DNA of 64,000 nt from Haplodiscus bocki. Its lineage: Eukaryota. Below, in pieces: positions 3,432-58,266 of this stretch. The notes beneath the pieces were generated by a model. The model saw nothing but the letters and a program-made list of their open reading frames with translations. It was not told where the DNA came from and searched no databases. A program made the translations under genes and the position numbers. How positions within the stretch are numbered: the stretch's first letter is position 1; every line of letters begins with the position of its first letter. The stretch covers positions 177,320,001-177,384,000 of the forward strand of contig OZ296648.1 in NCBI GenBank assembly GCA_965655095.1, read 5' to 3'.

Positions 3432-3432
3432 T

Positions 3433-10771: not shown

Positions 10772-10846
10772 CACTCTGTCACAGCCAATGAACCAATGCC
10801 GAATGATTGTATGGTCTTCTCTTTATTTAGGAGACACACCAGCTAT

Positions 10847-14672: not shown

Positions 14673-14708
14673 TTTTTTCCCTCCAATTGCGCGGACGCAA
14701 TTTCCCGC

Positions 14709-14720
14709 GGAGGGGAGTAG
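14709..14720 (+). promoter_or_regulatory. Polypurine tract of Element 1
   Basis: GGAGGGGAGTAG ends 1 nt before the 3' LTR. Confidence 0.85.
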
Positions 14721-14721
14721 T

Positions 14722-15424
14722 TGTAGCGGCCCTGTATGAACCAGTATGAACATTTTGCAAGCAAATACTCGTCATCCACTTCAGATTTATATTGTCATCT
14801 TTTGTCCCCCAGCCCCATAAACAGGCCTCTTTTAAAACAATCATGTCTCAGCTTTGTATTCAATTAGCCAAGTAAACCCACACTTGAAGTGGCAATATAT
14901 CTTATCATAAACTATCATTTTCACATGTTACATTATATTCCAGTCCTAACTTGTTGATTTTCATACGCATCTAAACTTATAACCAGGCCTCAATTTATAA
15001 ACTTTCATGTTAATCTAAACTTGTAAATTATCTTAAAAACATGAATCCTCCAACATTCTGCTGTTAATTGTAATCCTGTTTAAAACTTGACTATTCGTGA
15101 ATTCGAAACAAGAAAAAGAAGCAAAAAGAAAAATCAGCAATCAGACGAACACAGAAGCGAAACGAGAAGAAGCTGCTTGTAAAACAAGACAAAAAGAAAG
15201 AAAAACTCTGAACAATTGTGATATTCTGCTGATCATCACTAATGTAAGTGATTTGTGTTAAATATTAAAGTTAAATTCAGTCTTAAAGCAAAACTAGATT
15301 TTTCTCTTAGAACAATCCCAAAGAGTACCTAACACAAACAACCGTCCTCGCATCCGAAGTATTGAAAGAAATGAGAACTCTAAACTCTTGTTGCCAATTT
15401 TCCAATAAAATCACGGTTGTTAAA
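14722..15424 (+). repeat. Element 1 3' LTR
   Basis: Direct repeat of 2729-3431, followed by TSD GTTG. Confidence 0.97.
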
Positions 15425-18313: not shown

Positions 18314-18588
18314 CCCAGTGCACAGCCATAATATTCATTCGCTTGCTACCGTCAACTACCAACTTCCCCGAGGCAAAACTCTCTTCCACCTTCCTTTCAC
18401 CCATATTCTGGAAATATTCAAAGACTCTTCGTCAACAACCCGAAAATATTCAAAGACTTTTTCGCCTGCAAATTTGTCTGAGCCGCAAATCAGCAACAAC
18501 CCGAAAATATTCAAAGACTTTTTCGCCTGCAAATTTGTCTTAGCCGCAAATCATCAACTATATCCCGGAAATATTCGAAGACTTTCTG

Positions 18589-18885
18589 GGCAGCAATCAA
18601 CAGCATCAACCAGCAGCAGCAACCAGCAGCAGCTACCAACAGCAGCAACCAGCAGCAGCTACCAACAGCAGCAACCAGCAGCAACTACCAACAGCAGCAA
18701 TCAGCAACATCAACCAGCAGCAGCAACCAACAGCAACAATCAACCGCAGCAATCAGCAGCATCAACCAGCAGCAGCAACCAGCAGCAGCATTCAGCAGCA
18801 ACAATCAACAGCAGCAACCAGCAGCATCGATCAGCAGCAGCAACCAGCACTAACAATCAACAGCAACGACCAAAAGCAACAACCA
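18589..18885 (+). repeat. Degenerate CAG/CAA trinucleotide array inside the solo LTR
   Basis: (CAG/CAA)n interrupted by AAC/ATC units; it accounts for the Q/S/A-rich ORF 18261-18938. Confidence 0.9.
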
Positions 18886-38118: not shown

Positions 38119-40646
38119 TGTTGCGAGGGGTAGGGGGAATTATTGCTATGCTACTACGAGCATGCGGAAAGTAGAATCAATACTTGAGTTTAATATTCTT
38201 TCTCGCTCTAATTTTCTTTCTCGCTTAGTGCGGCAGGTTATTAGTGTTGCTTCTGTTGTCTAGATCAATACAGCGGTGGCGCCGCGGCGATTGTTTCGTC
38301 TAATGAAAATAAATCTCAGGGGCTTTTATCGATCTACTTTCAGGTGCCTTGCAGGCCCCGCGAACAAAGATTGCGTAAGTTCAAAGCAAGGACTTTACGA
38401 GCGATGAGGAGAAAATAGGAAATGAAATAATCAATTATTCAGTCAGCCGGGGGAACAAATATAATTAAATGCAAAATGAAAGGGGACTGCGCTAATGGAA
38501 AATGAATCATATAGTAGCAAAAGTGGGAGCAGAGTAAATTTCAGTCTCCATATAAAGTGTTTACAGCAGCCAGCAGAAAATTTTGTTATTTTTAAAATCA
38601 CCGAGAATTTATTCCCTTCAAAAGAATTACGATTATCGTCCCGTTGTAAATATTCCCTTCATTTATAAAATTCATCAGTTCAGCTGAAACTCGAAAACGT
38701 AATATTCAAGAAAAATTAAGATGGAAAACGCTGATAACACAACGAATATCTGATAATCTATTAATAAATTGAATGTTTAAAAAATCATTAGTAGAAATAA
38801 AATTAGCAAAGCAGTTTCCAATAACTTACGAATTTCATATGACAAAAATATAAGATGTCTTTTACAAAACTCTCAATACTATTTGAGATAAATTTCGGAG
38901 GTAAATTAACGTCTAGTAGTTTTTTTTTCTTCAGGCCAGATAGGAGACCTTTGTTCTCCTATTGTTCTGGGCCTGTTTTCTGAGGGAGTTTTTGGCTTTT
39001 TGTTGGTTTTATTTTATTAATTAACGTTATGTTATATATAACCTTTTGTATTTTGGTCTACACTCAGTACTGGCTTCGGCACAGTAACTGGTTGTGATCC
39101 TATTTTCCCGATCGTCCAAACCGTGAATAAATCACCGGATTTATTGGCGGGATTTGATTTGTTTTAAGCTTTGTCAATTTTGGTCTACACTCAGTACTTG
39201 CGTCAGCACAGTAACTGGTTGTGGTCCTAGTTTCCCGATTGTCCGAACCGTGAAAAAATCACCGAATTTAGTGGCGGGGTTTCGATTTGTTTTGAATTTT
39301 GTCTATAACTCAGGCAAAAGCTCGCTTTTAGCGGCAACCTGGTGATATTCTCCTAGTTCCCTTTCTTTCCAACCGAGAGCTTTGTCTAGCGGATGTTACG
39401 GAAGGAATTTATAAAGATTAGAACTGATCAGAGAGATATACTCAGTCTGAACTAGGAAACTTATTGACTTACGGTTACCGTTGATGGAGTTTGATGATCT
39501 ATTGATAACTCTGGGACTCTCCTCTGGGAAATCTGACTTGCGCGGAAAACGAATGGGAATTTTCGAATCAATACAAGGAATGGAATTGTTTGAATCAAGA
39601 ATGGACGGTTTCTGCGTATTTAAACCGTAAATCGGAATTTAGAATAAATTCTAAAGACCACGGTAGCAGACGAGGTGAGAATGGTCTATGAGTAATGTCA
39701 ATTCTCTTTGCCTAAGAACCTCGTGGGGGGTCGTGCATATTTAAGATCCACTCATGCTTCAGAACTAAGTTCATCCACGGAACCCGCACACGCCAATGCC
39801 GAAGCTAGCGTCAGTGGACACCGTTTAGACTCCGATGGCAAGAGTATGTAATAGGTAAGCAGGGAAGAGGGAATTTTTCTAAGTCAAGAAAAGAATGGGA
39901 CTTAGAATATTTTTGTAGAATTGAGCTGGTTTTGCGATTAAGACGGAAATTGGAACTGTCTTAGAATATTTTTGTAGAATTGAATTGCTTTCGCGACTAA
40001 GACAGAAATTAGAATTGTCTTAGAATATTTTTGTAGGATTGGAATTGGACTTAGAATATTTTTGTCCAAGAAGAGGAGAGAAGAGAGAAATTGGACTTAG
40101 AAAATTTTTGTCCAAGAAGAGGAGAGAAGAGAGAAATTGGACTGAGAAAATTTTTGTCCAAAGAGGTAAAAGGGAGAAGGGAGTTGGACTTAGAATAAAT
40201 TTGTCCAAGTAAAAGGGAGAAGTAGAGTAAAGTAAGCAAGTCAGAAGAGGAGTAAGAAGTCCCGTCCGCTTGAGCGGGAAAGCGAGTTATGATCAGGTCC
40301 GTTTCCCAGATCGACCCCAAAATAACATCATGCTGCCGTTTCATGCAACCAATAAGAAAAAAGCTTGTAGCAGCTATGGAACCAATAAGAAAAAGGCTTG
40401 TAGCAGCCATGGATTTTTGCTTGTAGCAGCAGGAGCCAATAAGAAAAAGGCTCGAGTTAGAAATTTTTTTTTAAAATTATTTATGCAACTTCAACGGTTT
40501 CTTTATTTCTTCAGCTTTTTTCTATTCTTCAATTCGTTAACGGCCCCCATATTTATCAACAGCCCCTCAAGAAGGTTAGCTTTAAGTAATTAATTAATTA
40601 TGTTTCCATTAATTAACGTTTAAGCGTTATGTGTAACGCGATAACT
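38119..40646 (-). repeat. Element 2 3' LTR
   Basis: Direct repeat of 55738-58266 (offset 17619). Internal ~120-bp duplication, CTTAGAATATTTTTGT tandem units, and CCAATAAGAAAAA x3. Confidence 0.96.
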
Positions 40647-40683: not shown

Positions 40684-42051
40684 CTATGAAAACGGGAAAA
40701 GGAGGGAAGTTTGGGTGTGAGGTTTCAGCACAAGAGGGTCAGAAAATTTGATCTCTATGAAACTCGCAGCATCAATTAGAAAACCTTCAGTTTCACTAAA
40801 GAGTTTGGAGTGGGGAATAAAATTATAAATTAGGATTGTTGCAACTCCAGTTTTTGTTGACATTGTTGGCTTCTTGTAGGCTGGGTCTTGATCGGGTCGG
40901 ATTGTCTTCATCCATGTGTTCATTGGATCCAGTTGGTCTCGAATACCAATGTGGATGAGCTTTGAGAAGGGCCATTGGAGAAGATTGTTGTAGTCTCCAG
41001 GGAAGAGGGTGAATAGAATTGAAGCACACTTGCCTATAGCGGGTCCAATACCATACGGGTAGAATTTATTGAAGAAATTGTACCCATGGGGGTGAGTCCT
41101 GAAGATAGGGCTACTAAAGCTTGTGGCCGGCTCAATGAGGGGATCAGATGATGGTCGGGCCACTTTTGCAGAGTCGAATACAAATTTCACTGAGGGGATT
41201 TTCCAAATAATAACATCTGAATTGCCGGGTTCAAGCTGGCGAATTTTATAGTATAAGAAGAAGTATTGGGAGTGAACACCCGCAGTGATGGATGTGTAAT
41301 TCGATATTTCATTGGCAAACAGTTTTTCTAATTTGCAAATTCCTGTTGTGAGGTTCTGCATTGTGGTTGAAGAAGCTTCCTGTGAGTTGCTTGTGGGCTT
41401 GAAATCGGCGTTTGGAGTATTGTTTGTTTTTGTTGTGGGTGCCCCCACAGGGCCCACCGGGGTAGAACGATGAAGTTTGGGGTCACCAGGGCCAGAAAGG
41501 AGAAAAGCAGAGGAGGTAGGGTTAGGGTTAGGGCTAGGGTTAGGATTAGGGTTAACGTTAGGAATTAATAGAGGACTAGTAGCGGCGTCCTTGGCTTTGA
41601 TATCCTTATTGAGGGTTGTGTCAACCGGGAGAAAGAGCAAGTAGCGCAATAAGGCAAAGTCATTTTGCAATTGGAGGAGGATGAGTTGTAGTGTCTGCCT
41701 GTCTGATTGTTCGGCTTTCAAATGCTGGTTAACCTGTTTGATGGTTTTGTTAATATCCTGAAGGCAGTTCGCTTGATGTTGGAGTGATGAAGGCAAAGGA
41801 GCTGAAGACCCAGGAGTTGATTGATTAGCTGCTACATCTGGTTTAGACTGGTTTGTCGGCTGGAGAAGAGGGAGGAGGAGAGTGTTGTCCGCAATGTGTT
41901 GGTTAATAGAGGGAATAGTTTACAAAGGCATTCCGCAAATTAATTGAGCCAAAGGAAGATTCATTGTATTAGAATGGTCCAACGAGGTAGGTGGGTCAGA
42001 GGAAGATTGATGATGAGGGAGGAAAGCTGGTGCAAGTGGGTTAAGTGACAT
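40684..42051 (-). pseudogene. PAM2 motif - coiled coil - TRAF-type MATH domain protein; one in-frame stop at 41920-41922
   Basis: ATG at 42051 starts MSLNPLAPAFLP (PAM2-like) in the same frame as ORF 40684-41796. Coiled coil LQDINKTIKQVNQHLKAEQ; MATH motifs VIIWKIP, SPIFRTHPHGYNF, FPGDYNNLLQWPF, IRDQ. Confidence 0.85.
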
Positions 42052-42674
42052 CAGCGGGGAAGTGCGGTAATGGCCTGTGGTGGTACTACTAATCGTTGAG
42101 AGGGGAGAGATGTGCTCTGGGTAGTATATTGTTGACGCTTGCCGTCCCAAAAGATTATTTCCCACTGACAAAACTCTGGTTTGAGACAGTATTGTAATTG
42201 TTGATTAAAACGGGGTCGTTTTGTTCTACCAGCGTGATTTGTATAATATTCACGGCGATGCTGTCGTCCAAGGGCAGATTGATCGGGCTGAAGTTTAAGG
42301 TGATTAGGACTTGACAGAAGGGGTCGAGCGTCAAATAAGAAGGAACTAAGAAGGGGGAGTTCTTGAGTGTTGTCGGATTGACTGGCTTTAGGTGAAGAAA
42401 TAGAAAATTGAGGGCCAGCTGATGCAGAAAGAGCAACGTCTGGGTGTATAAGTGGAGGTTGGCTGGTTGACAACGAGATTAGAGAGGGCGGTTCGTCAGG
42501 AGAGGCTGGATTGGAGGGTATTTTCGATGGAGAAGAGATAGGAGATAGGCAGGTGACACCGGTTTTAGTAAGGAGGTTCAAACTTGAAGGCGTTCGCGGT
42601 CGGAAGTCGTCCTCTGGATCAGAGATGACTGAAAGACAATCGTCACAAGGGGGAAAGGTTGAATGTAATTGGGC
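42051..42674 (-). CDS. Putative spliced 3' exon of an accessory gene (S/P-rich)
   Basis: TTCTTTTTTAG acceptor (AG 42676-42675) is in frame with ORF 42051-42581. Its TGA overlaps the next ATG (TGATG). Confidence 0.4.
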   Translation of the reverse strand, partial: AQLHSTFPPCDDCLSVISDPEDDFRPRTPSSLNLLTKTGVTCLSPISSPSKIPSNPASPDEPPSLISLSTSQPPLIHPDVALSASAGPQFSISSPKASQSDNTQELPLLSSFLFDARPLLSSPNHLKLQPDQSALGRQHRREYYTNHAGRTKRPRFNQQLQYCLKPEFCQWEIIFWDGKRQQYTTQSTSLPSQRLVVPPQAITALPR

Positions 42675-42696
42675 CTAAAAAAGAATCATGGCATAT

Positions 42697-44880
42697 TTAG
42701 ACAGGGGGAATGGGGGTCACGGCTTGGTTAAATTGAGCCGGACTCATGACAGGATAAATATGCTCCTCCTTTTTCTTAGGAGTATTTTTTATATCAGTTA
42801 ATTCTTCCCAACTATAAAGAGTCTTGCGCTCTTCTTCTACCGTGGCGAATGTAGGCGCGCGTGGATCATACATTGACGTAGAGACTGACATGAGGAAGAT
42901 ATTGTATGACGCACTAAGAAGGGTCTTACCGAACCCAACGGATGCGCCGGTCATTCTAGAGATTTCTAGGTGGCGTATTACCATGACCACGACATCTATT
43001 ATAAGTTTTAAAAGTAAAAACACTGAGAAGTAAATTCTGCAATGTTCAAGAACATATGCAACCGGCCCAAACGTATCCATGAACCGATCTTTGAAATATT
43101 CCGGAGATATCATTTTGTCAACATAGAAATCAGTCCTTGGGGTGTAATAGTGGAGGCCGTCAGGTCCGTCCGGTTGAGTAGAGTCTATAATTAGGTTCTG
43201 AGAATTTAAGGCAGTCCTGGAGGCGGCGTTAATGAGGATGTTGTCCCAAAATCCGCGAATTTCGTTTCCTGTGTACATCCCTGCATCCTGTGATCCAATG
43301 AGAGGCTGCGCAGTCATCGGTGTTAAATTCTTGGGGCCAAAAATAGCGGGTCTGTCCTGGTGTACTATGCCAGGAGTAAGATTATACCATGAATCTTCTT
43401 GATCCATGTCGAGTTGAAAAAGGTTCTTGATTCTATCTGAACAATTCTGCGGGACGGCATCAGGATAAGTTTGTCGGGTAATTGGGTCAACGAAACGAAT
43501 TTCACCTTCGTAGAGTATGGGTATCTTATCATAGCACTGATTCATCGTATGAAGTGGTGAGTGAACCTTCGGACAATGGTAAAGCCAGGCAACGCTTCCA
43601 TCAGTTTCCAGGAACATGGATCTATTCCCTGTGAGCATATAGCCGGCTAACCGGGGATTCTCGAGAGCGAGCATTAGGTTAGTGAGGATCTGGGTGCGCT
43701 CTTGTTCACATTGGTTCTGTAGTAGCTGTATTTCAGTTGCTTGGAGAAGTCGCGAACTTTGGAAGAATAGATAATCTATCTTCGTTCCGAGGTGCATTTC
43801 ATAATCCATGTTCAAGTAGCTATTCGGGTCTTCTGCTTGTTTGAACTGAGTGCCTTCCAACTGAGGGTTATCCGCATAGAGTTGACCAAAATCATTTTCT
43901 GCTCCAGGTCCTAGATACTGAAGAATTTTAGTGGCACCATTCTTCTCGCGGCCAAGATTCCTTCCAGTATTCATATCAAAACCTTCAGTGATTCGAGCCA
44001 TATAAAGCGAGTCGTAGTTTTTTGGGTAAATAGGTGTGGGCTTACCGCAATGTTTTTGTGGATTATTTTTGACTTCGAATACAAACTTGGACGTAGAGTC
44101 TTTCCCACTAATGACGTAGTATTTTGTATCCTGTTTAACCATGTTGACTTCTTCTGTTCGGAGGATGGAAAGCACACAATTGTCAGGGTAGTCCCAGATG
44201 TAGGCATATGGGTGCAGTGAAGTTGTTTCGCAACCAAGCTCTTCCAGAGCACAAAGCAGAATCAATCCCATATCAGATAATACTTTTCCGTTTTCCATCG
44301 TGACTTTTAGAGTTGTTTTCTGCATGTGAATAATAAAGGTATCCCGGGAAATCCAGCCTCTTGTTTTGCAATGATTCCTGTTTGAGCCTGTCGGATCACC
44401 AGAAACTTTGACAACAGGAGTTTTTGTGTCCCATTCAGCGCCAATCCAGTGGCCTTGCAGATAGATACTGGCTCCTTTTGCAAGGGTTCGGCAGTGTTCT
44501 GGCGAAATGATCAAATCACTTGTTATTCCAGCAATAGTGTGGTCGATGCTACTATGGTCAAGATGTCCACAATGCCATTTTTCACGTTGGTGCTGGCCGC
44601 GGCATTTGGTTGCGGCTAGTTCTCTCCGAAAGTGCTTGGTGTAGAGTGTGATTGTGGCTTTGCTGACTTCTAATTCTTCAGGTGTAATATGACACGGCCG
44701 TACTTGATTGATCGCATAAAATGAATTTTCTGTCATTGAGCTGCAGTCGAAGTGAGACACTTTAGGGGCTGGGGCAACCTGGTCTGCGTCTGGAACTAGA
44801 GTGTAAACGACCTCGGAACAAAACACGAGGATTTGAAAGAAAAATAGCGTCATCGCTGTACTCTTCAGCGGAGGTTCCAT
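42697..44880 (-). CDS. env: Env: chuvirus-glycoprotein-like (class III, gB-related) fusion protein, intact 727 aa
   Basis: Signal peptide; Cys pattern FDC..RPC..KCR..HCGHLDHS..EHCRTL..CALEELGC..WDYPDNC..KHCG..CEQER..LYHCPKV..QCYDKIP..FVDPITR..QNC; C-terminal TM IYFSVFLLLKLIIDVVVMVI. Branch/acceptor-like CTGAC...CAG just before the ATG. Confidence 0.8.
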   Translation of the reverse strand: MEPPLKSTAMTLFFFQILVFCSEVVYTLVPDADQVAPAPKVSHFDCSSMTENSFYAINQVRPCHITPEELEVSKATITLYTKHFRRELAATKCRGQHQREKWHCGHLDHSSIDHTIAGITSDLIISPEHCRTLAKGASIYLQGHWIGAEWDTKTPVVKVSGDPTGSNRNHCKTRGWISRDTFIIHMQKTTLKVTMENGKVLSDMGLILLCALEELGCETTSLHPYAYIWDYPDNCVLSILRTEEVNMVKQDTKYYVISGKDSTSKFVFEVKNNPQKHCGKPTPIYPKNYDSLYMARITEGFDMNTGRNLGREKNGATKILQYLGPGAENDFGQLYADNPQLEGTQFKQAEDPNSYLNMDYEMHLGTKIDYLFFQSSRLLQATEIQLLQNQCEQERTQILTNLMLALENPRLAGYMLTGNRSMFLETDGSVAWLYHCPKVHSPLHTMNQCYDKIPILYEGEIRFVDPITRQTYPDAVPQNCSDRIKNLFQLDMDQEDSWYNLTPGIVHQDRPAIFGPKNLTPMTAQPLIGSQDAGMYTGNEIRGFWDNILINAASRTALNSQNLIIDSTQPDGPDGLHYYTPRTDFYVDKMISPEYFKDRFMDTFGPVAYVLEHCRIYFSVFLLLKLIIDVVVMVIRHLEISRMTGASVGFGKTLLSASYNIFLMSVSTSMYDPRAPTFATVEEERKTLYSWEELTDIKNTPKKKEEHIYPVMSPAQFNQAVTPIPPV

Positions 44881-45183
44881 CTCTGGTATTTTACGTCAGA
44901 GAGAAAAACTATTAAAAAAAGAAATAGCGTCTTCACAGGTTTTCCCCGTGGAAGTTCACTCTATTTTTTCAGAGGAATAGCTATTGAAAAAAAATGCCGT
45001 AACATCAAACCGGCGCTCTGTGGGCACTAACACAAAGTGGAAACTATAATTTTATAGTAGTAGTTCCACTACTATTAAAACAACGTCGAGATTTTCATAA
45101 AGGGTGCCGGAATAGAACCGGTATCACCAAAAAAGTGCCAAATTCAGTATGTAAAAGTAACTCACCTCAACCATTGGGTTTCT

Positions 45184-46146
45184 TCAATTGTAGTGTGTTT
45201 TGTTGCGCTTTGGGCTTGTTGGCTTATCATTAGAAGTTGGAAATTGACACTGACGGATGAGTTGTTTGACTAAGTGTCTGGTCAGAGGATGAGTATTGTT
45301 GAACTGTGGAAAGTTCGTAAGTTTTTGTAGGGCTGAGAGGAGATTAGTTTGCTCTTCAGTCCCCGGTTTAATGGGAATTTTCCAGGTTCCAGGTTGCAGT
45401 TGCCTCAGACTATGGGCTGTTATTACAATTGGGTCAGATGCTTCACGCCACTCTATTTTTGTGATCTCCAAATGGTTACTCGTAGGTAGCAGGGTGCTGC
45501 CAGAGGCATTTGATGTTTAGTTCAAATGTCATATAGATCAACAAGAGCGTGCAGGATATTGATGTGTGACATATCGTTAAATCTCCCAAGGTTCTTGTCC
45601 ATATAATCCAGAAGATCGTCCAAGCTTTGGTTTTCTCTCTTATCCAGCGTCCTGGAAATTTTTAGAATTACAAAGAGGTTGGCGAACTCTTCTGTTCGAA
45701 CTGCTATGGGAATAAGGATTATCGCGAGTAGATTCTCAGTAACCCGCAATCTGACTTGTAAGGGACTTCCGACCGGAATCCAAAAGATTGTGGTTATAAA
45801 GTGTTCTCCTTGAAGAGAGAGTTGTGCCCACTTGCAGCGAATGTCGGCTCTCGTATGTGTCTTGTTGTTACCAGGTCGCTGTAAAGTAATTTCAATTGGG
45901 TTCATTCAGTGAATCGTCAAATATTCAAATTGTGTGATACATGCTCACAATTTTTGTTGGAGGAGGATTTTTAAAAAAGCCGTCCATAAAAGCAAAATTA
46001 GTAGATTCGAAAGGGCAAGAAAAGGTAACTTTTTCCCAAGTTTCAAGTTTTTCTGTGTCGATTTTGTAACTTTTAGCTGTAACGCTGTAGGTCAGACTTT
46101 TGATAATGTAGATTTTGTCGTTTATATCAAGGAAAATAGTTGTCAT
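45184..46146 (-). pseudogene. Cluster of degraded accessory reading frames (45925-46146, 45522-45905, 45184-45471)
   Basis: The first ATG is directly preceded by a CATTTAG acceptor; three abutting ORFs; GAG|GTGAGT donor at 45165; no recognisable domain. Confidence 0.45.
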
Positions 46147-46808
46147 CTAAATGATGAAATTTTCGTTTCCACAAACAATGTCACTAGGCATATAGATTTC
46201 TGAGGAAAGGAATTTCCGCAGATGATAATAATTAGGGGATCCAGAAGGGCAAGTATAGACAGACCTCTTCCTTCCCTGTTTCCGTTTCAATATGCAGCAG
46301 AATAGTCTCTGATTCGGACGTCAATTCAATTCTTTTGATTGTTTTTAGTTGTCCGTCAATCTTCACATACATCGAATCATCGCAAATCTGAGAACAAAGC
46401 CATCAGTTATTTCATTGCTCTTCGAGTATGTAATATTTATAAATTATTAATATAAAACTAGGATTGTTTTTCTAAAATTTTTGATTAGGTAAGAATTTTC
46501 TGAAATTTTTGATTAGGTAACAGGAAGATATTATGATAAAAAGATTATCAAATCAGCGTTCTTCATTCATTCTTCTTTTTCCATCTTCTTCGCTCGGCGT
46601 TTCTTCGTAGCAGAGCTTGGCATCGTCATGGAACGGGCCTTCCGGGTAGAAATAGGAGTTTCATGGTAGGGTAGGAGTCAGGTTCGGATGTGAGAAATGC
46701 ATCGAGAGATGAGGAGTCCGAAGATAGAGGTTAACGGATCGTAGAAAGAGGAGTCGGGATAAAAACAGGGGGGTCGTAGTTGCATATTCAAAAATTTCTT
46801 GTTGTAGG

Positions 46809-47405
46809 ATGGAACAGCCCGAAGAATTCTACGAGGAAGTTTCAGACGATGATGTTCAAGAAGTCCAGCCAGCGCAGGTGGCAGTCGTAGCACCGCTAAA
46901 TGTGGAGGTGCCGGAGATTCCGGAGAATCCGGAGTCTCCGTCACCTCAGCCTTCTCCCGTCTCTCTGCATCCGTCTCCCGCCTCCTCCGGTGGGTCGTCC
47001 CCTGTTGGTGGGCCTCCTGTTCCCCCGCCTCCTGGGTCCCCTAGGGAGGATGCCACGTCGTTCATGGGTTTTTACACCCATGAAGACGTGGTAGAACTTG
47101 AACAGTGGACGGTGGACGCGAGGGCCGCCAGAAGGGATCCGGCGGCTCGTATAGAGGAGCCCGAGGTGTCACCGAATTTAAAACTATATCTACGCTATGT
47201 ATATGGGACACAGTGGGAAGTTAAATTAATTCGTGAATCGGGGGAGGTTTTAATTGAACAATTAAAAGCTTATTTAGCAGGGTATAATCAATTAATCAGT
47301 TTCAACCGTCGGCAGTGGCTCCGACTGTTTCCTGCCTGGACTGCCCAAGAAAGGCGGGTGCAGTTGGGGGCACTCGCCGACGCGGGGGGATTTTGGGTTA
47401 TTTAG
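46809..47405 (+). CDS. Antisense accessory ORF, 198 aa (acidic/Pro-rich N-terminus, helical C-terminus)
   Basis: ATG-initiated, GC-rich, does not overlap gag/pol/env; TTGTAG acceptor-like site 1 nt before the ATG. Confidence 0.6.
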   Translation: MEQPEEFYEEVSDDDVQEVQPAQVAVVAPLNVEVPEIPENPESPSPQPSPVSLHPSPASSGGSSPVGGPPVPPPPGSPREDATSFMGFYTHEDVVELEQWTVDARAARRDPAARIEEPEVSPNLKLYLRYVYGTQWEVKLIRESGEVLIEQLKAYLAGYNQLISFNRRQWLRLFPAWTAQERRVQLGALADAGGFWVI

Positions 47406-47517: not shown

Positions 47518-47940
47518 TCAGGAAAAGTAAGTTGAATCGTCAGAGTAAATTGCAGAGGTCGAACAGTCGATTGAATGGACTGATTCTTCATCTGAGGAAT
47601 GTTCGTAACCAATATAATCGAAAATATGGGAGTGAAAACGTGTAGGGAGGTAGGCGAGTAATTCTTCGAGGAGAGGGTCTGTAGTTGTAAGAGAATGATA
47701 GCAAAGAAGATCGTACAAGCTAGCCATTGCTTTAGAGCCGAAATGAACTTGAAGGTTACTTTTATTGGTAAAGGGAAGACCAGGGTTAATAGGGGATTTT
47801 TGGGAGAGGCAGACACGGACTATATGAGTAGCATAGTTCCAGTAAACTTTGTTGAGAAGTGCCAAATCAAAGTTCAGTCCGTGCCATTCAGAAGGAACAT
47901 GCCATACACAGTTAGGATAAATTTTGTGGCATTTAGGCAT
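47518..47940 (-). CDS. Accessory ORF, 140 aa, acidic Ser-rich tail
   Basis: ATG preceded by pyrimidine tract and acceptor TTCCCTACTTTATTCCAG|ATAACC; lies just downstream of pol. Confidence 0.55.
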   Translation of the reverse strand: MPKCHKIYPNCVWHVPSEWHGLNFDLALLNKVYWNYATHIVRVCLSQKSPINPGLPFTNKSNLQVHFGSKAMASLYDLLCYHSLTTTDPLLEELLAYLPTRFHSHIFDYIGYEHSSDEESVHSIDCSTSAIYSDDSTYFS

Positions 47941-50900
47941 GGTTATCTGGAATAAAGTAGGGAAGTATAAAGCATATAATAAAGCTCATGAGGTATAAAT
48001 ATCAGAATTGTCATAAAAGAGATCATATAAAAAGTGAAAAATTAGAGTTTATAGCCTTGTCGAGTGCGCGTTTGGAGTACCGATTGTGAATCGGGATGAT
48101 CGGGCTGAAAGCGATTGTATTTTGGCTCTTTGGTTTTTGATTTCCGACTTTTTTCGATGAACTGTTGAATAGGAGTTAATGATCTGCTAGGAGGAGGCAT
48201 TCGTGAAGTTGATGGTATAAGAGGCGACTGCGAATGATCAGGTGTTATTGGCATTGCCGGGGAAGGGAAATGAGGAGAGTTAACTCCAGAATCACTACTA
48301 GTATTACTGACTCGTTTCGATGAGAGTGTAACCGGAGCAGTACGGAGAGGTTCAATAGGAAATGGGAGAGAGTCTTCCATGCTGGATTGTTCGGGGTTGT
48401 TTATCTTCTGAATGCGTTGTTCCATGAATCGTTCGTAGAAGTCATCCTGACGGCGGTCCATAGGCACATATTCCTCAATCATCGGAGGTAGAGTTTCCTC
48501 TTTAGAATAGTATTCGACTAGGTGATTTCGATGGACTGTTTTAAGAATCGTAGGATCCTTATCATCTTGGATTTGGTAAGTTGTGTTAGTTATTCGTTTC
48601 GTAACTGTAAAGGGTCCAAGTCGTCTTTGTTGAAGTTTCTGGCTCTTGGAAAGATCTTGGCGATGATTTTTGTAGAGAATTTCTTGTCCTATCTCTTAGT
48701 GTTGTCCCAGTTTGAATCGATTTCTGTAGGCATGGGATCTGGCTGTTTGTTCACGACATCTTTCGAAAGTAGCAGAGTAGATTCTTTTGAAGGCGCGTTC
48801 TCGTTCTAGGAGTGCATGTGAGAGTTGTGGTCGCAGGAGATTGTCTAATAACTGACTTTTTAAGTTGTTCTCACTATGTGAATGAGGTGGTAGGTCCTTG
48901 CAGAAATCAGAACAGCAAAGTTTGTGTTTGTTGCGGTAAAGTCCAAGTTTCAGATACATAGGAATCTGAGGTTTGGTATCGAAAACAATTTCATAAGGGG
49001 TCTTTCCAGTTGTATACTTATCACTTGTATTATGTGCAAAAGCAAATTTAGGAGCTAGTAAAGACCAATTGTTCCCAGCATCGTTCAAGAAGTTTCGCCA
49101 ATAACGGGCGACGTGTTGGTTTTGAGTTTCAATTTTGCCATTAGTCCAAGGCGAATGTGCTGTTCTAGGTCGTAAAGTGATTCCTAATTCTTTTGTCCAG
49201 TTAACGAATTCGGTATTGATGAATGCCGTGCCTCGGTCATGCACAATAGATTGAGGAATTCCGAATGAATGAATCCATTTCTCCACGGCAGAAATCGTAG
49301 TCTGAGCACCAGTGTTAGCAACTGGATAGACCATCAAGAACCGGGAGAATGCATCAATAACCAGGAGACAATGAAGGTTTCGATTACTTGGTGGGTGAAG
49401 AGGTCCCTTGTGATCTATGTGAATTGTTCGGAACGGAACAGTCTCGTTTTGCCATTCTTCTAGGGGTACTTCGTTCCTGTGTTTAGGCTTTGGTTTGTTG
49501 TTCTGGCAGGTGAGGCAATCAGCGGTAAGCGCACATATCCAATCAAACATACCGGACCAGTAGTAGAATCGTTTTGCATTGTTATAGGTTTTGGCGGATC
49601 CCATGTGTCCACCCATTTCATTGTAATGTCCAAGTCTGAAGCATGCTAAGAATAGGGATAGGGGTAGGCAAATTCGTAGGTTTTCATCATCTAATTTGTC
49701 AGTAGGTTCGTTGTAGCATAAGAGTTGTCCTTCTTCCTCGATTAAGAGTCGATCGAATTCTTGGCAATATCGAAGTAATCCCTTAGATTGTTGAAAATCG
49801 GGTGATTTTGCTTCGGGCGAGATGCTCTTACGGAGCCAAGAACGGACAGTGCCAAGCACTGGATCTTTAATCTGCTCGGCTAAGATTGTAGAAACGTCAA
49901 GATTAACTGTCTTAGCAACATCATCTAGTTTAGCAATTAGAGATTTAGTGTCCAAATGCGGCGCCTCAGTAGCTGTGAGTAGTTTCTTGGCTAGGGAAGC
50001 GTCTATTTTTCCCAAGATTGCGTCATGGGCTGCTTTAGCTTTGCACAGTCTGGAGTGGTCGGTGTGTGTGTTTATTTCACATATTAGGTTGTCCTCCTCG
50101 TCACTGGCAGTGGCGTCGTTCTCGACATCATGGGTCTCGTCGAATGCATTATCGTCTCCGTTAGTGTTCAGTGAATTGATCGCACTGTATGTGGGTTCGG
50201 AGTCTTCTATGGAGCTCAAGGATTGCGTTGAGGGTAGACATAGACGTCGGAATTGGTTGATTGTTCTGCCCAGTCGGAAACAATCCGTTGCAGATTGTAT
50301 TGTTGTTGAAGGAAACTCGTTACTAAGACTATTTAATGTGAAGGTTTCACCATCATTATGCAATCGGAGAACCTTGTTGTCGTTTCCTTGTTGGCAGTGC
50401 ATTGGGTAGAAATCGTTGCAAGTGTCGTTAGGATTATCATCGTGTTGTATTCGGTAGGTCACCGGAGAGCCACGTTCGTCATAGAATTCTATGTCTCTAG
50501 GTATTTTCTTGTGTTGTAGCTGATGTTTCTGGTATTCTTCCACCGTCACGTTTCGACTTAGAATATCCGGTAAAACAAGATTTGATCCTGGAGTCCAGAT
50601 AATCTTGAGATTTTGGAATTTAGTTATGATTACTTGATACCTGAAGAACCGATGCGATAGTTGTCCTTTTCTTCCCCATAGATACAGAATCGGTTTGTGA
50701 TCACAATATAAGTATATAGGGAAAGGAGATCCAATGATATAGTGTTCATAAGTTTGTAAAGCGGAGACTATTCCACAAAGTTCCCGATGCAGGGTAGACA
50801 TTTTCTGTTCTGCTTTGTCCAAGATTCTAGAATTGAAAGAGATTATTCGTTTTCCTTCAGGGAACTGTTGGATTAGGATGCAACCAGTTCCAACGTTTGA

Positions 50901-52244
50901 TGAATCCACATGAATGTGAAAGGGATATTCAGTAGAGGGTACAGCAAGAATAGTGTCTTCGCTAATCCTGTCCTTGATGGTTTGGAATAATTTTTCGTGC
51001 TCATGTGTCCAGTGGAAAGGAGTCGAGTCCTTAATCAAGTCGCAGAAGGGCTGACTGTCCACATGAAGGTTCCTAATATAACAACTCTAGAACCCTAGGC
51101 ATCCAAGAACTTTCATGACATCTCGTATACTTTCTAGTGATTTGAGGTTTTTCAAGTCTTTTACTCGTTTTGCAATAGGTTGAATTCCTTCTGGTGATAT
51201 AACGTGACCAAGAAATTTAACTTTCTTTAGGAAGAAGAACATTTTGTCGGGTGCTGCTTTAAGACCTGCTTTCCTAAGAAGAGTATGGAACTCGTTGATT
51301 ACTGTGAATATTTCGTTCTTGTTTTGTGATTGCAATATGGTATCGTCGATGTAAGTGATTGCTTGTTTTTCTTGATGAGGGGGTCGAAATGTATTGTCAT
51401 TAGCCGACTGAAGAAGTTTGGAAGTCCGCATAAGCCATAGAACCCACGTGTGTAGGTGTACTGTTTCCCACACCACCAGTTGGATTATGAAACTGGTTAG
51501 CTTTTGTGTGTCTGGGCTCAATGGAACTTGATGATAGGCACAGGAGAGATCACTTACTGAGAAGACTTTGCCATTGACCCGAGTGATGATCATCTGCACT
51601 GGTTCTTAGGGCCAGGAATAGATCGTAAGATCTGTCACTGAATTAAGATATCTCGCATCAATCACTAACTTCACATAGTCGTGCTTAGGCATTAAGATGA
51701 TTGGGTTAACAAATAACGATCCCATCTCGTCGTCGTCACCCATTTCACGAATGATATCTGCGTCTTTTAGTTGTGTGAGTAGCTTTTCTAGCTTTTCTTT
51801 CAAGTGTAGGGGGATTTTGCTAGGTCGTTGTCGTTTCAATTCCACATTAGGTTTTAGTGTGACATTGAAATTCTGACGGGTTTTGCCCACATCGAATTTA
51901 TGATGAGAATAAACGTCTCGCGCGTCAACTAACATATCAATCAGGAGTACCATTTCTTCGTCGGTAATGTCCGAGTACTGGAAGTCGAATTCTTTAACGT
52001 AGTTTATGAGTTCTTTTGGCTGATATTGAAGATAGTGATCAATGAGTCGGTGGCTGTGATCTTTCTCACGGAGGATTGGAAATTGCTCGTCACATGTTGG
52101 CTGACAGGATTTAGAGTCTTTAGTAAAGTCTGTTTCTAACTCGTGGTTTTCTAGGAGAAATTCTTCACTGTATCGTTCTATCTCGTCGTCTGCATAGAAC
52201 TCAGCATCGCCTTCAGCGGACAACGCGTGAACTCCACTTTCCTC

Positions 52245-52670
52245 GAGAGTGTAGACTACGATTTGCACTTCAGCATAAGCAAAGATGTCTCGAAGTAGCT
52301 TTACAACCTCTTGCCAATTCATTTGATCTAGTCCACAACCAAGTTTGGGTATAGCAATAGTGGAGACACCATTTGTACTAGCATGAATCTTCATTGCTTC
52401 TAATGTTTTAGACAGTGTTGGTAGATTAGGTTTGTCGCAGAACCTTTCTTTAGTCACTAAGTTGTAGATGTAGCGTTTTCCTGTTGAGTCCCAAAAAGGG
52501 TAGACTTGTCCCATGAAGAGTTTTGGTTTTCGGCATGTTGATCTAAGACCAGGAATTCTATGGGATAGGAAATCTGCGAAGCCTTTACTCATTCGGGCAT
52601 CCGCCGATATGCAGTGTCCAATCTAATTAGGTTGTAGGAGAATTGAATCTTCCGTGCCATAGATGATTTG
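52245..52670 (-). other. TARG1/OARD1-type macrodomain inside Element 2 Pol, between protease and RT
   Basis: IGHCISADARMSKGFA...YIYNLVTKERFCDKP...TLEAMKIH...IAIPKLGCGLDQMNWQEV...IVVYTL. Confidence 0.9.
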
Positions 52671-53548
52671 TAAAAATTCGTCACTGTTCTGGGCTGGAAC
52701 CGTTGAATGTAAGAGAAAGCAGTCATTGTATCGTTCATCAGTAGAGACGACAGCATTTGTTAACTCATAAGGACTTCGTATTTGATATTTGGGTTCTTCT
52801 TGATCAACCACGTCAAGAGAAGAGAATCCGATCCGTCCCTTTGGTAGCGTTATCTGATGATTCTTGTTGTTTTCCATCAGTATTGGAAGATTACATTCGG
52901 ATCTGGTACATAAAGTGTTTATAAAAGACAGGCCAGTAGCCACAGCAGTTCGATTCGGCTGAAAAGTAGAGCCTGGTGGGAAGTGTATATGGGGATCCGT
53001 AGGCGAATATTTCCAGCAACGGGCACTTTTAGCATCAATATACTTTGTATAAGGGGTTCTAATAGTTAAGGTTTGCGACAGATGGGGATAGGATTTATTT
53101 TGGTGGAAACTGCCATAACAGATTGACTTTGGAGGATTTTTAATTTCAATCCCAGGCAGATCAAAATCAATTCCAGAAACCTGTTTTTGGCAGAAGTCCA
53201 TGCCAAGGAGATTTTGAGTCCTCATCTCAGTGATCCACACTGTTAGCGGGAAGATAAATTGTCCATCTGGATCATAACTAAAAGTGATAGTCGCATGGCC
53301 GATCATTGGAACTGTTTGTCCCGAGTAAGTCTTTGTTATTTTGGTAATTTTTTGTATAGTGATTGGGTGCTGTAACTGGCAAATTTCCCAAAAAGTTCGG
53401 TAATTGGTGATAGAGCAAGAAGCTCCTGTGTCTAACATGAATTCGATCTCTAAACCACTTTCTTTTTGAGTGTCTCCGGTGGCGAAGTGGAAGATATTGA
53501 GGCTAAGTCTTGAATTTCTAGATTTGTCGGTGTTTGAGTTCGGAGACC

Positions 53549-54989
53549 TTAGTAGTTTAACGGGCAAAGGTCCGATATTTCGTTAACCGTATCATCTGTT
53601 GTTGTGAAACGGACCACATTAGATGATGTTTGATTATTGTTCTGCGGAAATTTTTGTTCGTAGGGCGTAAAACTAGTCGTTGGTCGATTGTCAGATCTAC
53701 GGAACGCAGAGTTATTAGGTTGATCACTTCCTGGTTGGCGATAGGAGTTATTCTGTGAAAAGTCTCTTCTTTGAGTCGATGGTGAACGAGAAAAGTTTGC
53801 ATTTGGTCGCCAGTTCCCATTCGAGTTATTGAAAGATCCATTTCGAGATCGAGTTCCATCGTTTGTATTAAATGACTGATTTCGACGTTGATCAAAGGAT
53901 CTCCCATTGTCTGGGCGATTATTTCCTTATGGGAAGTGTGGTCTCGGAGAGAAATTCTGGTTTTTATTGGGGGGAATTTCTCTTAAATCCATCGTTATTA
54001 TAGTTGTTATTTCTTCTTCGGAAATCCTGACCTCTGGTCCATTGTTGCGATTCATGGTCTGGTCCTCGTTTCTTGTTGTAATCTTGAGTAAAAGTGACTT
54101 TTTTGTCGGCAGTTCTTTCATTCTCAAATCTTTTCAATTCTTCATCTCGTATCTTCTTGCGGCACCAGCTTGGGGTATGTCCGTTTGTGCGGCAAAAGTT
54201 GCAAAATCGTGTTGCATTCTGTCTTCCCTTCTGATTTGGGTCTACTGTTCGAGAATTTCCTTCTACAGCATTGACTCGGTGTTCTAGCAGCTCTGATCTT
54301 AGGTTCTTCATCTCTTGGCCCAACGTGGCCATCTGAGCCTTGGTTTGTTCTTCGTCATTTAAAAAGTTGGAAGAAACTTGAAATGATATATCTTTTTGTA
54401 TTATTCTGGCAGAAAAATCGTTCCACGTAGCATTTGGGTTTTCCATCAGATATTCCTGTGCCTTTCGTTGTAAGTATTTCGGTCTAAGTCCCTTTAGTGA
54501 GTAGTCGATGTATCTCTGTCTTCTTTGTCGTCCTTGAGCTGCACGTTCTTCGCCGTGTTGAGCAGCCTCAACACCGTTCATATCGTCGGGCCAACCTTTA
54601 TCCACAGTTCTCTTGATACGGTGTAAGAAGTTTCGGATTTCTTCTCCGTCTCCTCTAATGCAATGTTCCACTTCCATTCGGTATCGGAATTTGTTTCGTC
54701 CGTCTGAGAATCTGGTGATGAAGTTCGTTCGGACGTCGTCCCAGGCTGTTGCGTTGGTAATATTGCTTTCGTACCACTCAGCGGCTGGTCCTCGGAGTAA
54801 AGAGGAAAACAGCGCTTTCTTCCTGAAGGTGTAGTTTGCAAGTTCACTAAAGTCTCCAGGTGCGTCTCCAAGAGCAAAGTTGATTCTTCGTTCATTTAAT
54901 TGGATAAAGGATTCGGCGTCCTGATCGGGGTCTGTGCCAGAGAGTTTGTCGATGGCTAGATCAGGATACGCGAGGTGAGTATTGGCCAT
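53549..54989 (-). pseudogene. gag: Gag (one frameshift near 53964 and a stop at 53927)
   Basis: LLRGPAAEWY gag core; knuckle CNFCRTNGHTPSWC; N/R-rich tail ending DLCPLNY* at 53549. Confidence 0.88.
53555..53561 (-). promoter_or_regulatory. Putative -1 slippery site G TTA AAC (gag-pol)
   Basis: gag reads CCG TTA AAC TAC TAA; the -1 frame reads PVKLLRSP, the start of pol. Confidence 0.65.
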
Positions 54990-55005
54990 TGTGGGAGTTG
55001 TATTG

Positions 55006-55347
55006 TCAAACCAGGGAGTCTAATAGTTCTCCAAGAATATGAAGTTGGTAGGAGTTTATGTGGGGTTCGGGAGAATCTTCGTATTCGTCGAGAACTTCTG
55101 ATAGAGATTCAAGTAACGGGTTATTTTTATTAATATCTATTTGTTTCGAGATATTGGGGTTTCCTTCTGGGTGGGCAGTTACTCTGATCCAAAAATCATA
55201 GTTGAAGGTCCATTTTATGCATGTAATGACAACTGTTAAGGTTTCGTTTCCAGAAGTGATGGTCCACAGGCAATTCAGTGGAATATGCTGGCATTCATCG
55301 TCTATGTCATTCCAATTCGGAGGAAGATTCTCAGATTTCTGTGGCAT
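55006..55347 (-). CDS. Pre-gag ORF, 113 aa, unknown function
   Basis: ATG-initiated, globular-looking composition, ends 16 nt before the gag ATG. Confidence 0.5.
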   Translation of the reverse strand: MPQKSENLPPNWNDIDDECQHIPLNCLWTITSGNETLTVVITCIKWTFNYDFWIRVTAHPEGNPNISKQIDINKNNPLLESLSEVLDEYEDSPEPHINSYQLHILGELLDSLV

Positions 55348-55737: not shown

Positions 55738-58266
55738 TGTCGCGAGGGGTAGGGGGAATTATTGCTATGCTACTACGAGCATGCGGAAAGTAGAATCAAT
55801 ACTTGAATTTAATATTCTTTCTCGCTCTAATTTTCTTTCTCGCTTAGTGCGGCAGGTTATTAGTGTTGCTTCTGTTGTCTAGATCAATACAGCGGCGGCG
55901 CCGCGGCGATTGTTTCGTCTAATGAAAATAAATCTCAGGGGCTTTTATCGATCTACTTTCAGGTGCCTTGCAGGCCTCGCGAACAAAGATTGCGTAAGTT
56001 CAAAGCAAGGACTTTATGAGCGATGAGGGGAAAATAGGAAATGAAATAATCAATTATTCAGTCAGCCGGGGGAACAAATATAATTAAATGGAAAATGAAA
56101 GGGGACTGCGCTAATGGAAACTGAATCATATAGTAGCAAAAGTGGGAGCAGAGTAAATTTCAGTCTCCATATAAAGTGTTTACAGCAGCCAGCAGAAAAT
56201 TTTGTTATTTTTAAAATCACCGAGAATTTATTCCCTTCAAAAGAATTACGATTATCGTCCCGTTGTAAATATTCCCTTCATTTATAAAATTCATCAGTTC
56301 AGCTGAAACTCGAAAACGTAATATTCAAGAAAAATTAAGATGGAAAACGCTGATAACACAACGAATATCTGATAATCTATTAAAAAATTGAATGTTTACA
56401 AAATCATTAGTAGAAATAAAATTAGCAAAGCAGTTTCCAATAACTTACGAATTTCATATGACAAAAATATAAGATGTCTTTTACAAAACTCTCAATACTA
56501 TTTGAGATAAATTTCGGAGGTAAATTAACGTCTAGTAGTTTTTTTTTCTTTAGGCCAGATAGGAGACCTTTGTTCTCCTATTGTTCTGGGCCTGTTTTCT
56601 GAGGGAGTTTTTGGCTTTTTGTTGGTTTTATTTTATTAATTAACGTTATGTTATATATAACCTTTTGTATTTTGGTCTACACTCAGTACTGGCTTCGGCA
56701 CAGTAACTGGTTGTGATCCTATTTTCCCGATCGTCCAAACCGTGAATAAATCACCGGATTTATTGGCGGGATTTGATTTGTTTTAAGCTTTGTCAATTTT
56801 GGTCTACACTCAGTACTTGCGTCAGCACAGTAACTGGTTGTGGTCCTAGTTTCCCGATTGTCCGAACCGTGAAAAAATCACCGAATTTAGTGGCGGGGTT
56901 TCGATTTGTTTTGAATTTTGTCTATAACTCAGGCAAAAGCTCGCTTTTAGCGGCAACCTGGTGATATTCTCCTAGTTCCCTTTCTTTCCAACCGAGAGCT
57001 TTGTCTAGCGGATGTTACGGAAGGAATTTATAAAGATTAGAACTGATCAGAGAGATATACTCAGTCTGAACTAGGAAACTTATTGACTTACGGTTACCGT
57101 TGATGGAGTTTGATGATCTATTGATAACTCTGGGACTCTCCTCTGGGAAATCTGACTTGCGCGGAAAACGAATGGGAATTTTCGAATCAATACAAGGAAT
57201 GGAATTGTTTGAATCAAGAATGGACGGTTTCTGCGTATTTAAACCGTAAATCGGAATTTAGAATAAATTCTAAAGACCACGGTAGCAGACGAGGTGAGAA
57301 TGGTCTATGAGTAATGTCAATTCTCTTTGCCTAAGAACCTCGTGGGGGGTCGTGCATATTTAAGATCCACTCATGCTTCAGAACTAAGTTCATCCACGGA
57401 ACCCGCACACGCCAATGCCGAAGCTAGCGTCAGTGGACACCGTTTAGACTCCGATGGCAAGAGTATGTAATAGGTAAGCAGGGAAGAGGGAATTTTTCTA
57501 AGTCAAGAAAAGAATGGGACTTAGAATATTTTTGTAGAATTGAGCTGGTTTTGCGATTAAGACGGAAATTGGAACTGTCTTAGAATATTTTTGTAGAATT
57601 GAATTGCTTTCGCGACTAAGACAGAAATTAGAATTGTCTTAGAATATTTTTGTAGGATTGGAATTGGACTTAGAATATTTTTGTCCAAGAAGAGGAGAGA
57701 AGAGAGAAATTGGACTTAGAAAATTTTTGTCCAAGAAGAGGAGAGAAGAGAGAAATTGGACTGAGAAAATTTTTGTCCAAAGAGGTAAAAGGGAGAAGGG
57801 AGTTGGACTTAGAATAAATTTGTCCAAGTAAAAGGGAGAAGTAGAGTAAAGTAAGCAAGTCAGAAGAGGAGTAAGAAGTCCCGTCCGCTTGAGCGGGAAA
57901 GCGAGTTATGATCAGGTCCGTTTCCCAGATCGACCCCAAAATAACATCATGCTGCCGTTTCATGCAACCAATAAGAAAAAAGCTTGTAGCAGCTATGGAA
58001 CCAATAAGAAAAAGGCTTGTAGCAGCCATGGATTTTTGCTTGTAGCAGCAGGAGCCAATAAGAAAAAGGCTCGTGTTAGAAATTTTTTTATAAAAACTAT
58101 TTATGCAACTTCAACGGTTTCTTTATTTCTTCAGCTTTTTTCTATTCTTCAATTCGTTAACGGCCCCCATATTTATCGACAGCCGCTCAAGAAGGTTAGC
58201 TTTAATTAATTAATTAATTATGTTTCCATTAATTAACGTTTAAGCGTTATGTGTAACGCGATAACT
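55738..58266 (-). repeat. Element 2 5' LTR
   Basis: Direct repeat of 38119-40646; minus strand reads AGTTATCGCG...CGCGACA. Confidence 0.96.

Follow-up and report, generated by a model that had tools for sequence, protein, structure and literature searches.

The last gene of an LTR retrotransposon in the animal Haplodiscus bocki codes for a TRAF-domain protein that is not a RING-type TRAF and that begins with a PAM2-like motif; judging from its codon substitutions, it is a functional accessory gene of a complex, env-carrying Ty3/Gypsy family. The window analyzed, i.e., the whole stretch of 64,000 nt (OZ296648.1:177,320,001-177,384,000) from a host genome of 1.5 Gb, contains the feature under study at 40684..42051 (Table 1). 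The initial annotation had described there about 455 aa readable through one stop (41920-41922) and comprising a coiled coil, a low-complexity linker, a helix and a TRAF-type MATH domain, without RING or zinc fingers and inside an LTR element. This architecture was confirmed: the frame runs from 42051 to 40684 on the minus strand (a point on which that annotation was silent), between env and the 3' LTR, and has 455 codons with the N-terminus MSLNPLAPAFLP and a single internal TAA at codon 44; the plus strand of the same interval is closed, and the "helix" is the TRAF-N coiled coil.

Table 1. Features of the TRAF-bearing element in the window, in element sense order (positions are those of the window).
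Feature	Position	Strand	Evidence
5' LTR, 2.5 kb	55738..58266	-	LTR alignment
113-aa ORF preceding gag; other subfamilies have one to three homologues in tandem	55006..55347	-	
gag (Retrotrans_gag), frameshifted in the window copy	53549..55019	-	Pfam
pol in several pieces, with stops: aspartic protease, macrodomain, RT, RNase H, integrase	48042..53582	-	Pfam, PDB
TARG1/OARD1-like macrodomain between protease and RT	about 52245-52619	-	PDB E 5e-24
155-aa ORF that follows integrase; subfamilies A, C and D have homologues	47518..47985	-	
Antisense acidic/proline-rich ORF; homologues in other subfamilies	46728..47405	+	
127-aa ORF, subfamilies A, B, D	45522..45905	-	
Predicted mini-exon Met-Val-Glu (45174-45166), donor at 45165, in phase with ORF-U	45160..45174	-	
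env-like gene, class III-type viral fusion glycoprotein	42697..44895	-	Pfam Monjiviricetes_fusion E 1e-35
Conserved, predicted 3' splice acceptor immediately 5' of ORF-U: pyrimidine run + AG	42675..42686	-	
ORF-U, 207-aa exon without Met; TGA overlaps the TRAF ATG (TGATG)	42051..42674	-	
PAM2-coil-linker-coil-MATH accessory gene, 455 codons, one internal stop	40684..42051	-	ORF translation, Pfam, PDB, AlphaFold, Foldseek
N-terminal PAM2-like motif, codons 1-12, key L3 N4 P5 A7 F10 P12	42016..42051	-	Alignment, Pfam
Premature TAA, codon 44, private to the window copy	41920..41922	-	1/36 aligned copies
First coiled coil, homologous to the upstream coil of host TRAF paralogues; dN/dS 0.22	41635..41790	-	Alignment, AlphaFold
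Low-complexity linker with NP repeats, evolving almost neutrally; dN/dS 0.74 (95% CI 0.55-1.01)	41371..41634	-	Alignment, AlphaFold
TRAF-N coiled coil, predicted trimer stalk	41236..41370	-	AlphaFold, trimer prediction
TRAF-C/MATH domain, without the intron of host paralogues; dN/dS 0.21 (95% CI 0.16-0.26)	40741..41214	-	Pfam, PDB, Foldseek
3' LTR, 99.3% identical to 5' LTR	38119..40646	-	LTR alignment

The MATH domain was recognized by Pfam (TRAF-mep_MATH, E 2.7e-14; MATH_2, E 2.8e-12), by comparison with PDB sequences (TRAF4/5, E 4e-12 to 5e-11; profile match, E 5e-26) and by a Foldseek search with the predicted model (TRAF1/5/3/4/2 domains, E ~1e-11 to 1e-9). The AlphaFold model, which began after the codon-44 stop (411 aa) and leaves the PAM2-like motif itself outside, consists of two long helices (44-95 and 184-228), a low-confidence stretch (98-183) and a beta-sandwich (236-393); the segment following the motif has a pLDDT below 50. 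No Pfam match to a RING or a zinc finger was obtained in the 411-aa piece, and the RING pattern occurs in 0/119 of the database homologues tested. A longer in-frame N-terminus, as in database proteins starting ~38 aa upstream, was rejected: those starts are bacterial-code GTG calls, and upstream of the ATG this frame has a dN/dS >1 while the ORF-U frame is constrained.

The initial annotation had read the N-terminus as a PAM2 motif. This reading is supported by the selective conservation, visible in the alignments, of exactly those positions that define the motif, and is weakened by the score of the window copy, which reaches 13 bits (E 0.089) against the Pfam cut-off of 20 bits. The motif lies at the extreme N-terminus and only its key positions are conserved, its neighbours not: the N-termini of the four subfamilies recognized in this work all read MxLNPxAxxFxP and diverge directly afterwards, and M1, N4, P5, A7, F10 and P12 are conserved at 90% or more (16 sequences, four subfamilies) with synonymously varying codons. 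Within-family variation is in agreement with this, pN being 0.072 at the key positions and 0.147 at their neighbours (2.5% of random sets are as low). We take the conserved positions to be the PAM2-defining ones, in line with a consensus with which Pfam agrees in part.

With the Pfam model, any match was obtained in 3/8 N-termini and a match over the cut-off in 0/8. In the genome-wide scan, four other element copies scored 20.0-22.4 bits (cut-off 20; genome-wide E 0.28-1.7), and element N-termini accounted for seven of the nine top matches fetched. The best match (24.3 bits) is the N-terminal motif of a non-element host gene, which, by its likeness, is probably eRF3 (its GTPase exons were not reached within 20 kb). 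Both non-element matches also lack the Glu at position 9, before Phe, so that its absence from the element motifs is no objection in this host. The pattern L[NS]xxAxxFxP had no match when 27 non-element loci were translated and scanned (415,026 positions). As for possible partners, searches with PF00658 and TIGR01628 did not locate a host PABP (the TIGR01628 matches read are other RRM proteins), most likely a limit of the search; the only MLLE match in the genome is half a domain in a UBR5-type gene, followed by HECT, and a database search with this half MLLE returned two UBR5 fragments only.

A DNA search for related copies yielded 40 scored matches among 1460 candidates; 38 copies were read after dropping two duplicates, and 36 entered the codon analysis, two partial ones being left out. 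All 38 lie ahead of an LTR and have ORF-U and env sequence upstream as far as their flanks extend, with partial deletions in three of them (L035, L038, L040). The codon-44 stop occurs in 1/36 aligned copies, the window copy itself, other stops being scattered; fully open are 4/36 of these copies closest to the window, and 17 of 18 further copies are open from PAM2 through MATH, in a sample chosen by PAM2 score and hence biased toward intact motifs. The pairwise dN/dS was 0.21 (0.16-0.26) for MATH, 0.22 for the first coil, 0.24 (0.13-0.38) for the PAM2 codons and 0.74 (0.55-1.01) for the linker, these intervals being optimistic because the copies are related. Four subfamilies were distinguished: A, to which the window copy belongs, and B, C and D, whose proteins share 32-40% of their residues with that of the window. 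As judged from these substitution ratios, the TRAF ORF has been under purifying selection throughout its split into at least four subfamilies. Neither of the two findings that the initial annotation had named beforehand as speaking against its reading was encountered: the stop is private to the window copy rather than fixed, so that PAM2 is joined to the remainder elsewhere, and the MATH segment, far from being a neutrally decaying capture unique to this copy, belongs to a multi-copy family under purifying selection.

The family is large. Scanned with PF21355, the genome yielded 2967 candidates, a figure that is not a copy number, and all 150 of those scored were over the cut-off; hundreds of copies are a safe floor. 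The protein database holds 510 homologues of the TRAF ORF, and all of the 120 listed are unnamed. In six other copies the two LTRs are 89-98% identical to each other (a match was found in 7/8 comparisons), and therefore the elements have been active over a long time. A few structures depart from the common layout: in internally deleted copies (L057:734-1375 and 8559-9200, and L040) env is fused in frame to the MATH portion, and the L057 structure is repeated in tandem with a spacing of 7.8 kb. A location of MATH inside the LTR, suggested by pairs of matches ~18 kb apart, was discarded, the one pair followed being two tandem elements. In viral contigs, 54 pattern matches were obtained and none was confirmed.

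The element proteins were compared phylogenetically with host TRAFs, a check that the initial annotation had proposed. In the MATH tree (37 rows) the element sequences form one clade (100/99), and together with the L048/L049-type TRAFs they split from the other TRAFs (100/96); the exact sister of the element clade is weakly placed (37/24), where long branches meet. The full coil-linker-coil-MATH layout is also that of L049 (C5:9.06 Mb) and L048 (C5:50.4 Mb), two host genes with introns, whose first coil has a motif in common with the element proteins. Both also have a MATH intron at H|SKL that the elements lack; therefore, the capture took place from a spliced mRNA. As judged from these alignments, the element TRAF descends once from a lineage-specific host TRAF and gained its PAM2-type motif N-terminally. 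No RING match was found near L048 or L049 (the pattern scan, over ~35 and 25 kb upstream of the two genes, gave one unconvincing match), so the loss of the RING may be inherited and not an engineered truncation; the donor TRAF may already have been RING-less and TRAF1-like. L049 has one zinc-finger-like exon upstream, without Pfam support, and a host gene with RING, zf-TRAF and MATH lies at C8:58.45 Mb. At least six decayed MATH copies (L076-L081), 42-52% identical to the host L049 and without element genes in the fetched flanks, form a distinct group of ancient TRAF duplications or captures. In addition, the database proteins P0272/P0205 and P0180, from short contigs, are RING-less TRAFs of the same host-type lineage without PAM2, P0272 having a proline-rich style like that of a mobile-element gene.

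The element is 20.1 kb long, with 2.5-kb LTRs that are 99.3% identical. In sense order it contains the 113-aa ORF, gag, protease, macrodomain, RT, RNase H, integrase, the 155-aa ORF, the antisense ORF, the 127-aa ORF, env, ORF-U and the TRAF gene. This domain order and the best PDB match of pol, Ty3 Gag-Pol (E 1e-26), place it in Ty3/Gypsy. PF24664 was found in both env ORFs scanned (E 1e-35 and 7e-37), and env had no match among PDB sequences. The role of the TARG1/OARD1-like macrodomain is presumably ADP-ribose removal, and it is likely to be a second counter-defence module of the same element. No target-site duplication of 4-6 bp was seen at the aligned LTR ends (38119/58266), and there are many breaks in gag-pol despite the LTR identity; the window element was possibly mobilized in trans or rearranged. 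No tRNA was found in the window.

Other features of these elements and of the window were recorded. The 113-aa-type ORF, which has no Pfam family, is present in one, two or three divergent tandem copies by subfamily (e.g., L102:6672-7725). The homologues of the antisense ORF (L103:2249-2767, L104:551-1069) are ~30-40% conserved across subfamilies, and in a subfamily-C copy one lies inside both LTRs. A subfamily-A element (L150:6409-9898) sits, apparently within an intron, ~17 kb downstream of the first exon of the probable eRF3 gene. A second, different env-carrying Gypsy element occupies window positions 2729-15424 (+); its 703-bp LTRs are 99.0% identical, its macrodomain lies between RNase H and integrase, its env is Baculo_F-like (E 0.0017), and its ORF 13851-14672 combines a coiled coil with a J-domain-like segment containing HPD (DnaJ, E 0.0027). 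At 18433-18940 the window has a 13-nt repeat array and a 61-nt duplication; the left part of this array resembles the tail appended to the ORF in L047.

The region directly upstream of the TRAF gene suggests how it might be expressed. ORF-U has an acidic amphipathic N-terminal part, a basic helix with KRPR and a small SH3/Tudor-like C-terminal barrel, and is under purifying selection in its own frame (dN/dS 0.24-0.55). It starts directly after a pyrimidine-AG in the four subfamilies, the acceptor AG being present in 31/35 subfamily-A copies. The mini-exon motif, ATG GTN GAR|GT(A/G/T)AG, lies 190-384 nt before env; the donor motif was found at 23/28 loci, 20 of them with the ATG, and the motif was absent from the 510 kb of non-element loci scanned. 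Of all trinucleotides, ATG shows the strongest depletion in the ORF-U exon (18 seen vs. 89 expected in 13 copies), and it is undepleted in the TRAF ORF (201 seen vs. 197 expected). The stop of ORF-U, present in 35/35 A copies, forms with the start of the TRAF gene an overlap of the type TGATG, TAATG or ATGA. The AUG depletion and the stop-start overlap point to selection on the translation of the TRAF ORF. Taken together, these features predict a single spliced, subgenomic mRNA that is bicistronic and would be translated by leaky scanning and/or reinitiation; contigs from four sequencing runs of one study, of unrecorded type, gave no usable indication of splicing. Comparable layouts are those of HTLV tax/rex and of UAAUG-coupled genes. 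ORF-U has no Pfam family and no atlas match; Foldseek gave only non-significant SH3/Tudor/integrase-CTD barrels (best E 0.19), and all of the 120 listed of its 413 database homologues are unnamed. The predicted two-exon MVE+ORF-U protein, of no known family, is a candidate transactivator or RNA-export protein.

The coil and MATH are predicted to form a TRAF-type trimer: the homotrimer model of this part of the window protein scored 0.71 against 0.01 for the best control, its contacts agree by at least 90% between runs and its pLDDT is at least 77. The score mark was reached by 21/30 solved homo-pairs (7/16 for animals) and by 0/23 single chains, and the score may reflect the predictor's memory of solved TRAF trimers. 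The different surfaces have been kept to a different extent. Compared with 38% identity to the host and 51/136 columns invariant across subfamilies for the whole MATH, the TRAF-C trimer contacts reach 48% (8/14 invariant) and the groove-facing columns 23% (0/16 invariant), the latter having been chosen post hoc from the alignment and surface sites varying more than the core anyway. In the coil contacts the identity to the host is no more than 30%, which makes hetero-trimers uncertain.

A Phe and a Gly conserved in the groove of the host are lost in 4/4 subfamilies. In TRAF2 numbering, mapped through TRAF4/5 alignments and the TRAF2 sequence, the F410- and G468-equivalents are lost in 4/4 subfamilies and the equivalents of R393/Y395 are variable. 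Among the receptor hot spots of the TRAF1/2/3/5 type, which include a serine triad, R393/Y395 and F410 (PMC6125299, PMC7215387), the serine triad is absent from both element and donor proteins. Since the groove residues differ from those of the host, host ligands may not bind. Within subfamily A, pN in the groove is 0.074, the same as in the rest of MATH; a groove that is remodelled with respect to the host, yet constrained inside a subfamily, would therefore be in use with a changed specificity.

On these grounds we favour, tentatively and at slightly less than even confidence, a trimeric counter-defence adaptor that would intercept signalling through host TRAFs from a docking site on MLLE proteins, namely PABP and possibly UBR5. 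The protein would be translated from a spliced bicistronic mRNA made of the MVE mini-exon, the ORF-U exon and the TRAF ORF, the last being reached by scanning through an AUG-free exon and/or by stop-start reinitiation. The TRAF-type trimer would display its three PAM2 motifs at the distal tip of a long stalk and, via its conserved trimer surface, might co-assemble with, or compete against, host TRAFs, to which it would supply no ubiquitin-ligase activity. Docking on poly(A)-bound PABP through PAM2-MLLE binding would then keep whatever TRAFs or TRAF ligands it captures bound to mRNPs and out of reach of their receptors. The more specific proposal of the initial annotation, a dominant negative of TNFR/TLR-NF-kB signalling, is unsupported: a Rel-homology domain (NF-kB) had no match in this genome, a weak negative for which no positive control rang, and the two TIR matches read are, as far as seen, not Toll-like receptor ORFs. 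The difference between the element groove and that of the host also argues against a simple receptor-competing decoy.

A wider reading is possible, with rather more doubt attached to it, namely that an invertebrate Ty3/Gypsy lineage independently evolved both a complex-retrovirus layout and a TRAF adaptor with PAM2 in place of the RING, in hundreds or thousands of copies. Besides a class III-type env, such a lineage would possess an antisense ORF, a macrodomain that removes ADP-ribose and a regulatory protein spliced from two exons; its PAM2, by binding MLLE, would stand in functionally for the RING and link the TRAF pathway with PABP or with the UBR5 ligase.

The protein might instead act on the RNA side and not as an immune antagonist. 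Its TRAF part would then be a trimeric scaffold with the groove re-specified for Gag, the Env tail or another element protein, and the PABP recruited by PAM2 would protect, translate, transport or package the element RNA, or the motif would compete with eRF3/PAIP-type proteins. We regard this as unlikely: the purifying selection on the remodelled groove inside subfamily A fits co-evolution with a subfamily-specific element partner, and the missing NF-kB match is in its favour, but both host-derived coils and the trimer surface remain host-like, no element partner has been identified, and Ty3/Gypsy elements are able to replicate without an adaptor of this kind. A parallel is offered by LINE-1, which encodes a PABPC-binding element (10.1101/2025.10.09.680815). 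The motif might also recruit, to make up for the absent RING, the MLLE of the HECT ligase UBR5/HYD, so that the MATH groove would pick a host defence protein for ubiquitination by a borrowed ligase. Vif/Vpx-type proteins work likewise with other ligases, and the UBR5 MLLE binds PAM2 motifs. The UBR5-type MLLE-HECT gene being the only MLLE match of the genome, and a groove that differs between subfamilies and is conserved within one of them, as expected of an arms-race target, speak for this adaptor; we nevertheless consider it improbable, in that PABP most likely escaped detection through a limit of the search, no substrate is known, and PABP far outnumbers PAM2 proteins in human data (10.64898/2026.01.10.698208) and would compete.

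A signalling activator, i.e., a trimer that clusters host TRAFs and triggers survival, proliferation or death signalling to the advantage of the element, appears still more improbable, given that it leaves PAM2 unexplained and that the element TRAF has no ligase domain. The viral TRAF to which it might be likened, ISKNV ORF111L, activates caspase-8 apoptosis via TRADD, but carries a RING (PMC3352826), and the RING-less TRAF1 is credited with positive as well as negative roles (PMC11117997). Lastly, the low Pfam PAM2 scores and the broken state of most copies near the window might suggest a neutral passenger, or a PAM2 likeness due to chance. This we judge very improbable indeed: neutrality of the TRAF ORF is already refuted by the dN/dS estimates for MATH (0.16-0.26) and the motif (0.13-0.38), the motif is kept with synonymous changes across subfamilies that are 32-40% identical, and the AUG depletion and stop-start overlap upstream are signs of selection on translation.

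If the adaptor reading is correct, invertebrate Ty3/Gypsy elements would be engaged in a protein-level arms race with the TRAF pathway, and PAM2 mimicry would be a tool of mobile elements. A selected element TRAF suggests a dedicated protein interfering with host signalling or mRNA handling, and hints at a role of the unusual TRAF paralogues of a host in which no NF-kB match was found. Moreover, element copies dominate the TRAF/MATH counts in this genome, which matters for the annotation of an "immune gene expansion". Large DNA viruses are known to carry captured immune-signalling adaptors, but the literature searched gave none in an LTR retrotransposon. The searches of open PMC/bioRxiv full texts showed neither a TRAF in an LTR element nor a PAM2-TRAF fusion; subscription papers, repeat libraries and supplements lay outside this scope, and a genome paper could hold a TRAF-bearing LTR element.

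The layout of the element recalls that of complex retroviruses (HTLV tax/rex, foamy virus bel), in which a short ATG exon upstream of env is spliced to a post-env exon and accessory genes lie between env and the 3' LTR. The likeness is one of layout, with splicing predicted here; there is no sequence relationship, and the window pol is closest to Ty3. Like Anakin, a BEL-Pao LTR element with a chuvirus-type glycoprotein (PMC7642597), the window element has captured a Monjiviricetes/chuvirus-related fusion glycoprotein, but it belongs to Ty3/Gypsy, measures ~20 kb and, besides a TARG1-like macrodomain, has at least five additional ORFs. With the PAM2 proteins eRF3, PAIP1/2, ataxin-2 and TOB (10.64898/2026.01.10.698208), it has in common an LNxxAxxFxP in a disordered terminus; in the element the motif, a putative MLLE binder, is fused to a TRAF domain and displayed three times on the predicted trimer. 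The capture of a host TRAF by a virus-like agent has a counterpart in ORF111L of the megalocytivirus ISKNV, which (PMC3352826) is encoded by a large DNA virus, has a RING, induces apoptosis and is described without a PAM2, differing in this from the element TRAF, for which a use in host signalling is proposed here. By analogy, the element TRAF may work like a captured viral signalling adaptor. Finally, it resembles the RING-less TRAF1 and the TRAF family (PMC6125299, PMC11117997) in its TRAF-N coil, TRAF-C sandwich, predicted mushroom trimer and lack of a RING; unlike TRAF1, it is encoded by a retroelement, intronless and endowed with a second upstream coil, an N-terminal PAM2 and changed groove residues, and it descends from a lineage-specific host TRAF instead of the vertebrate TRAF1.
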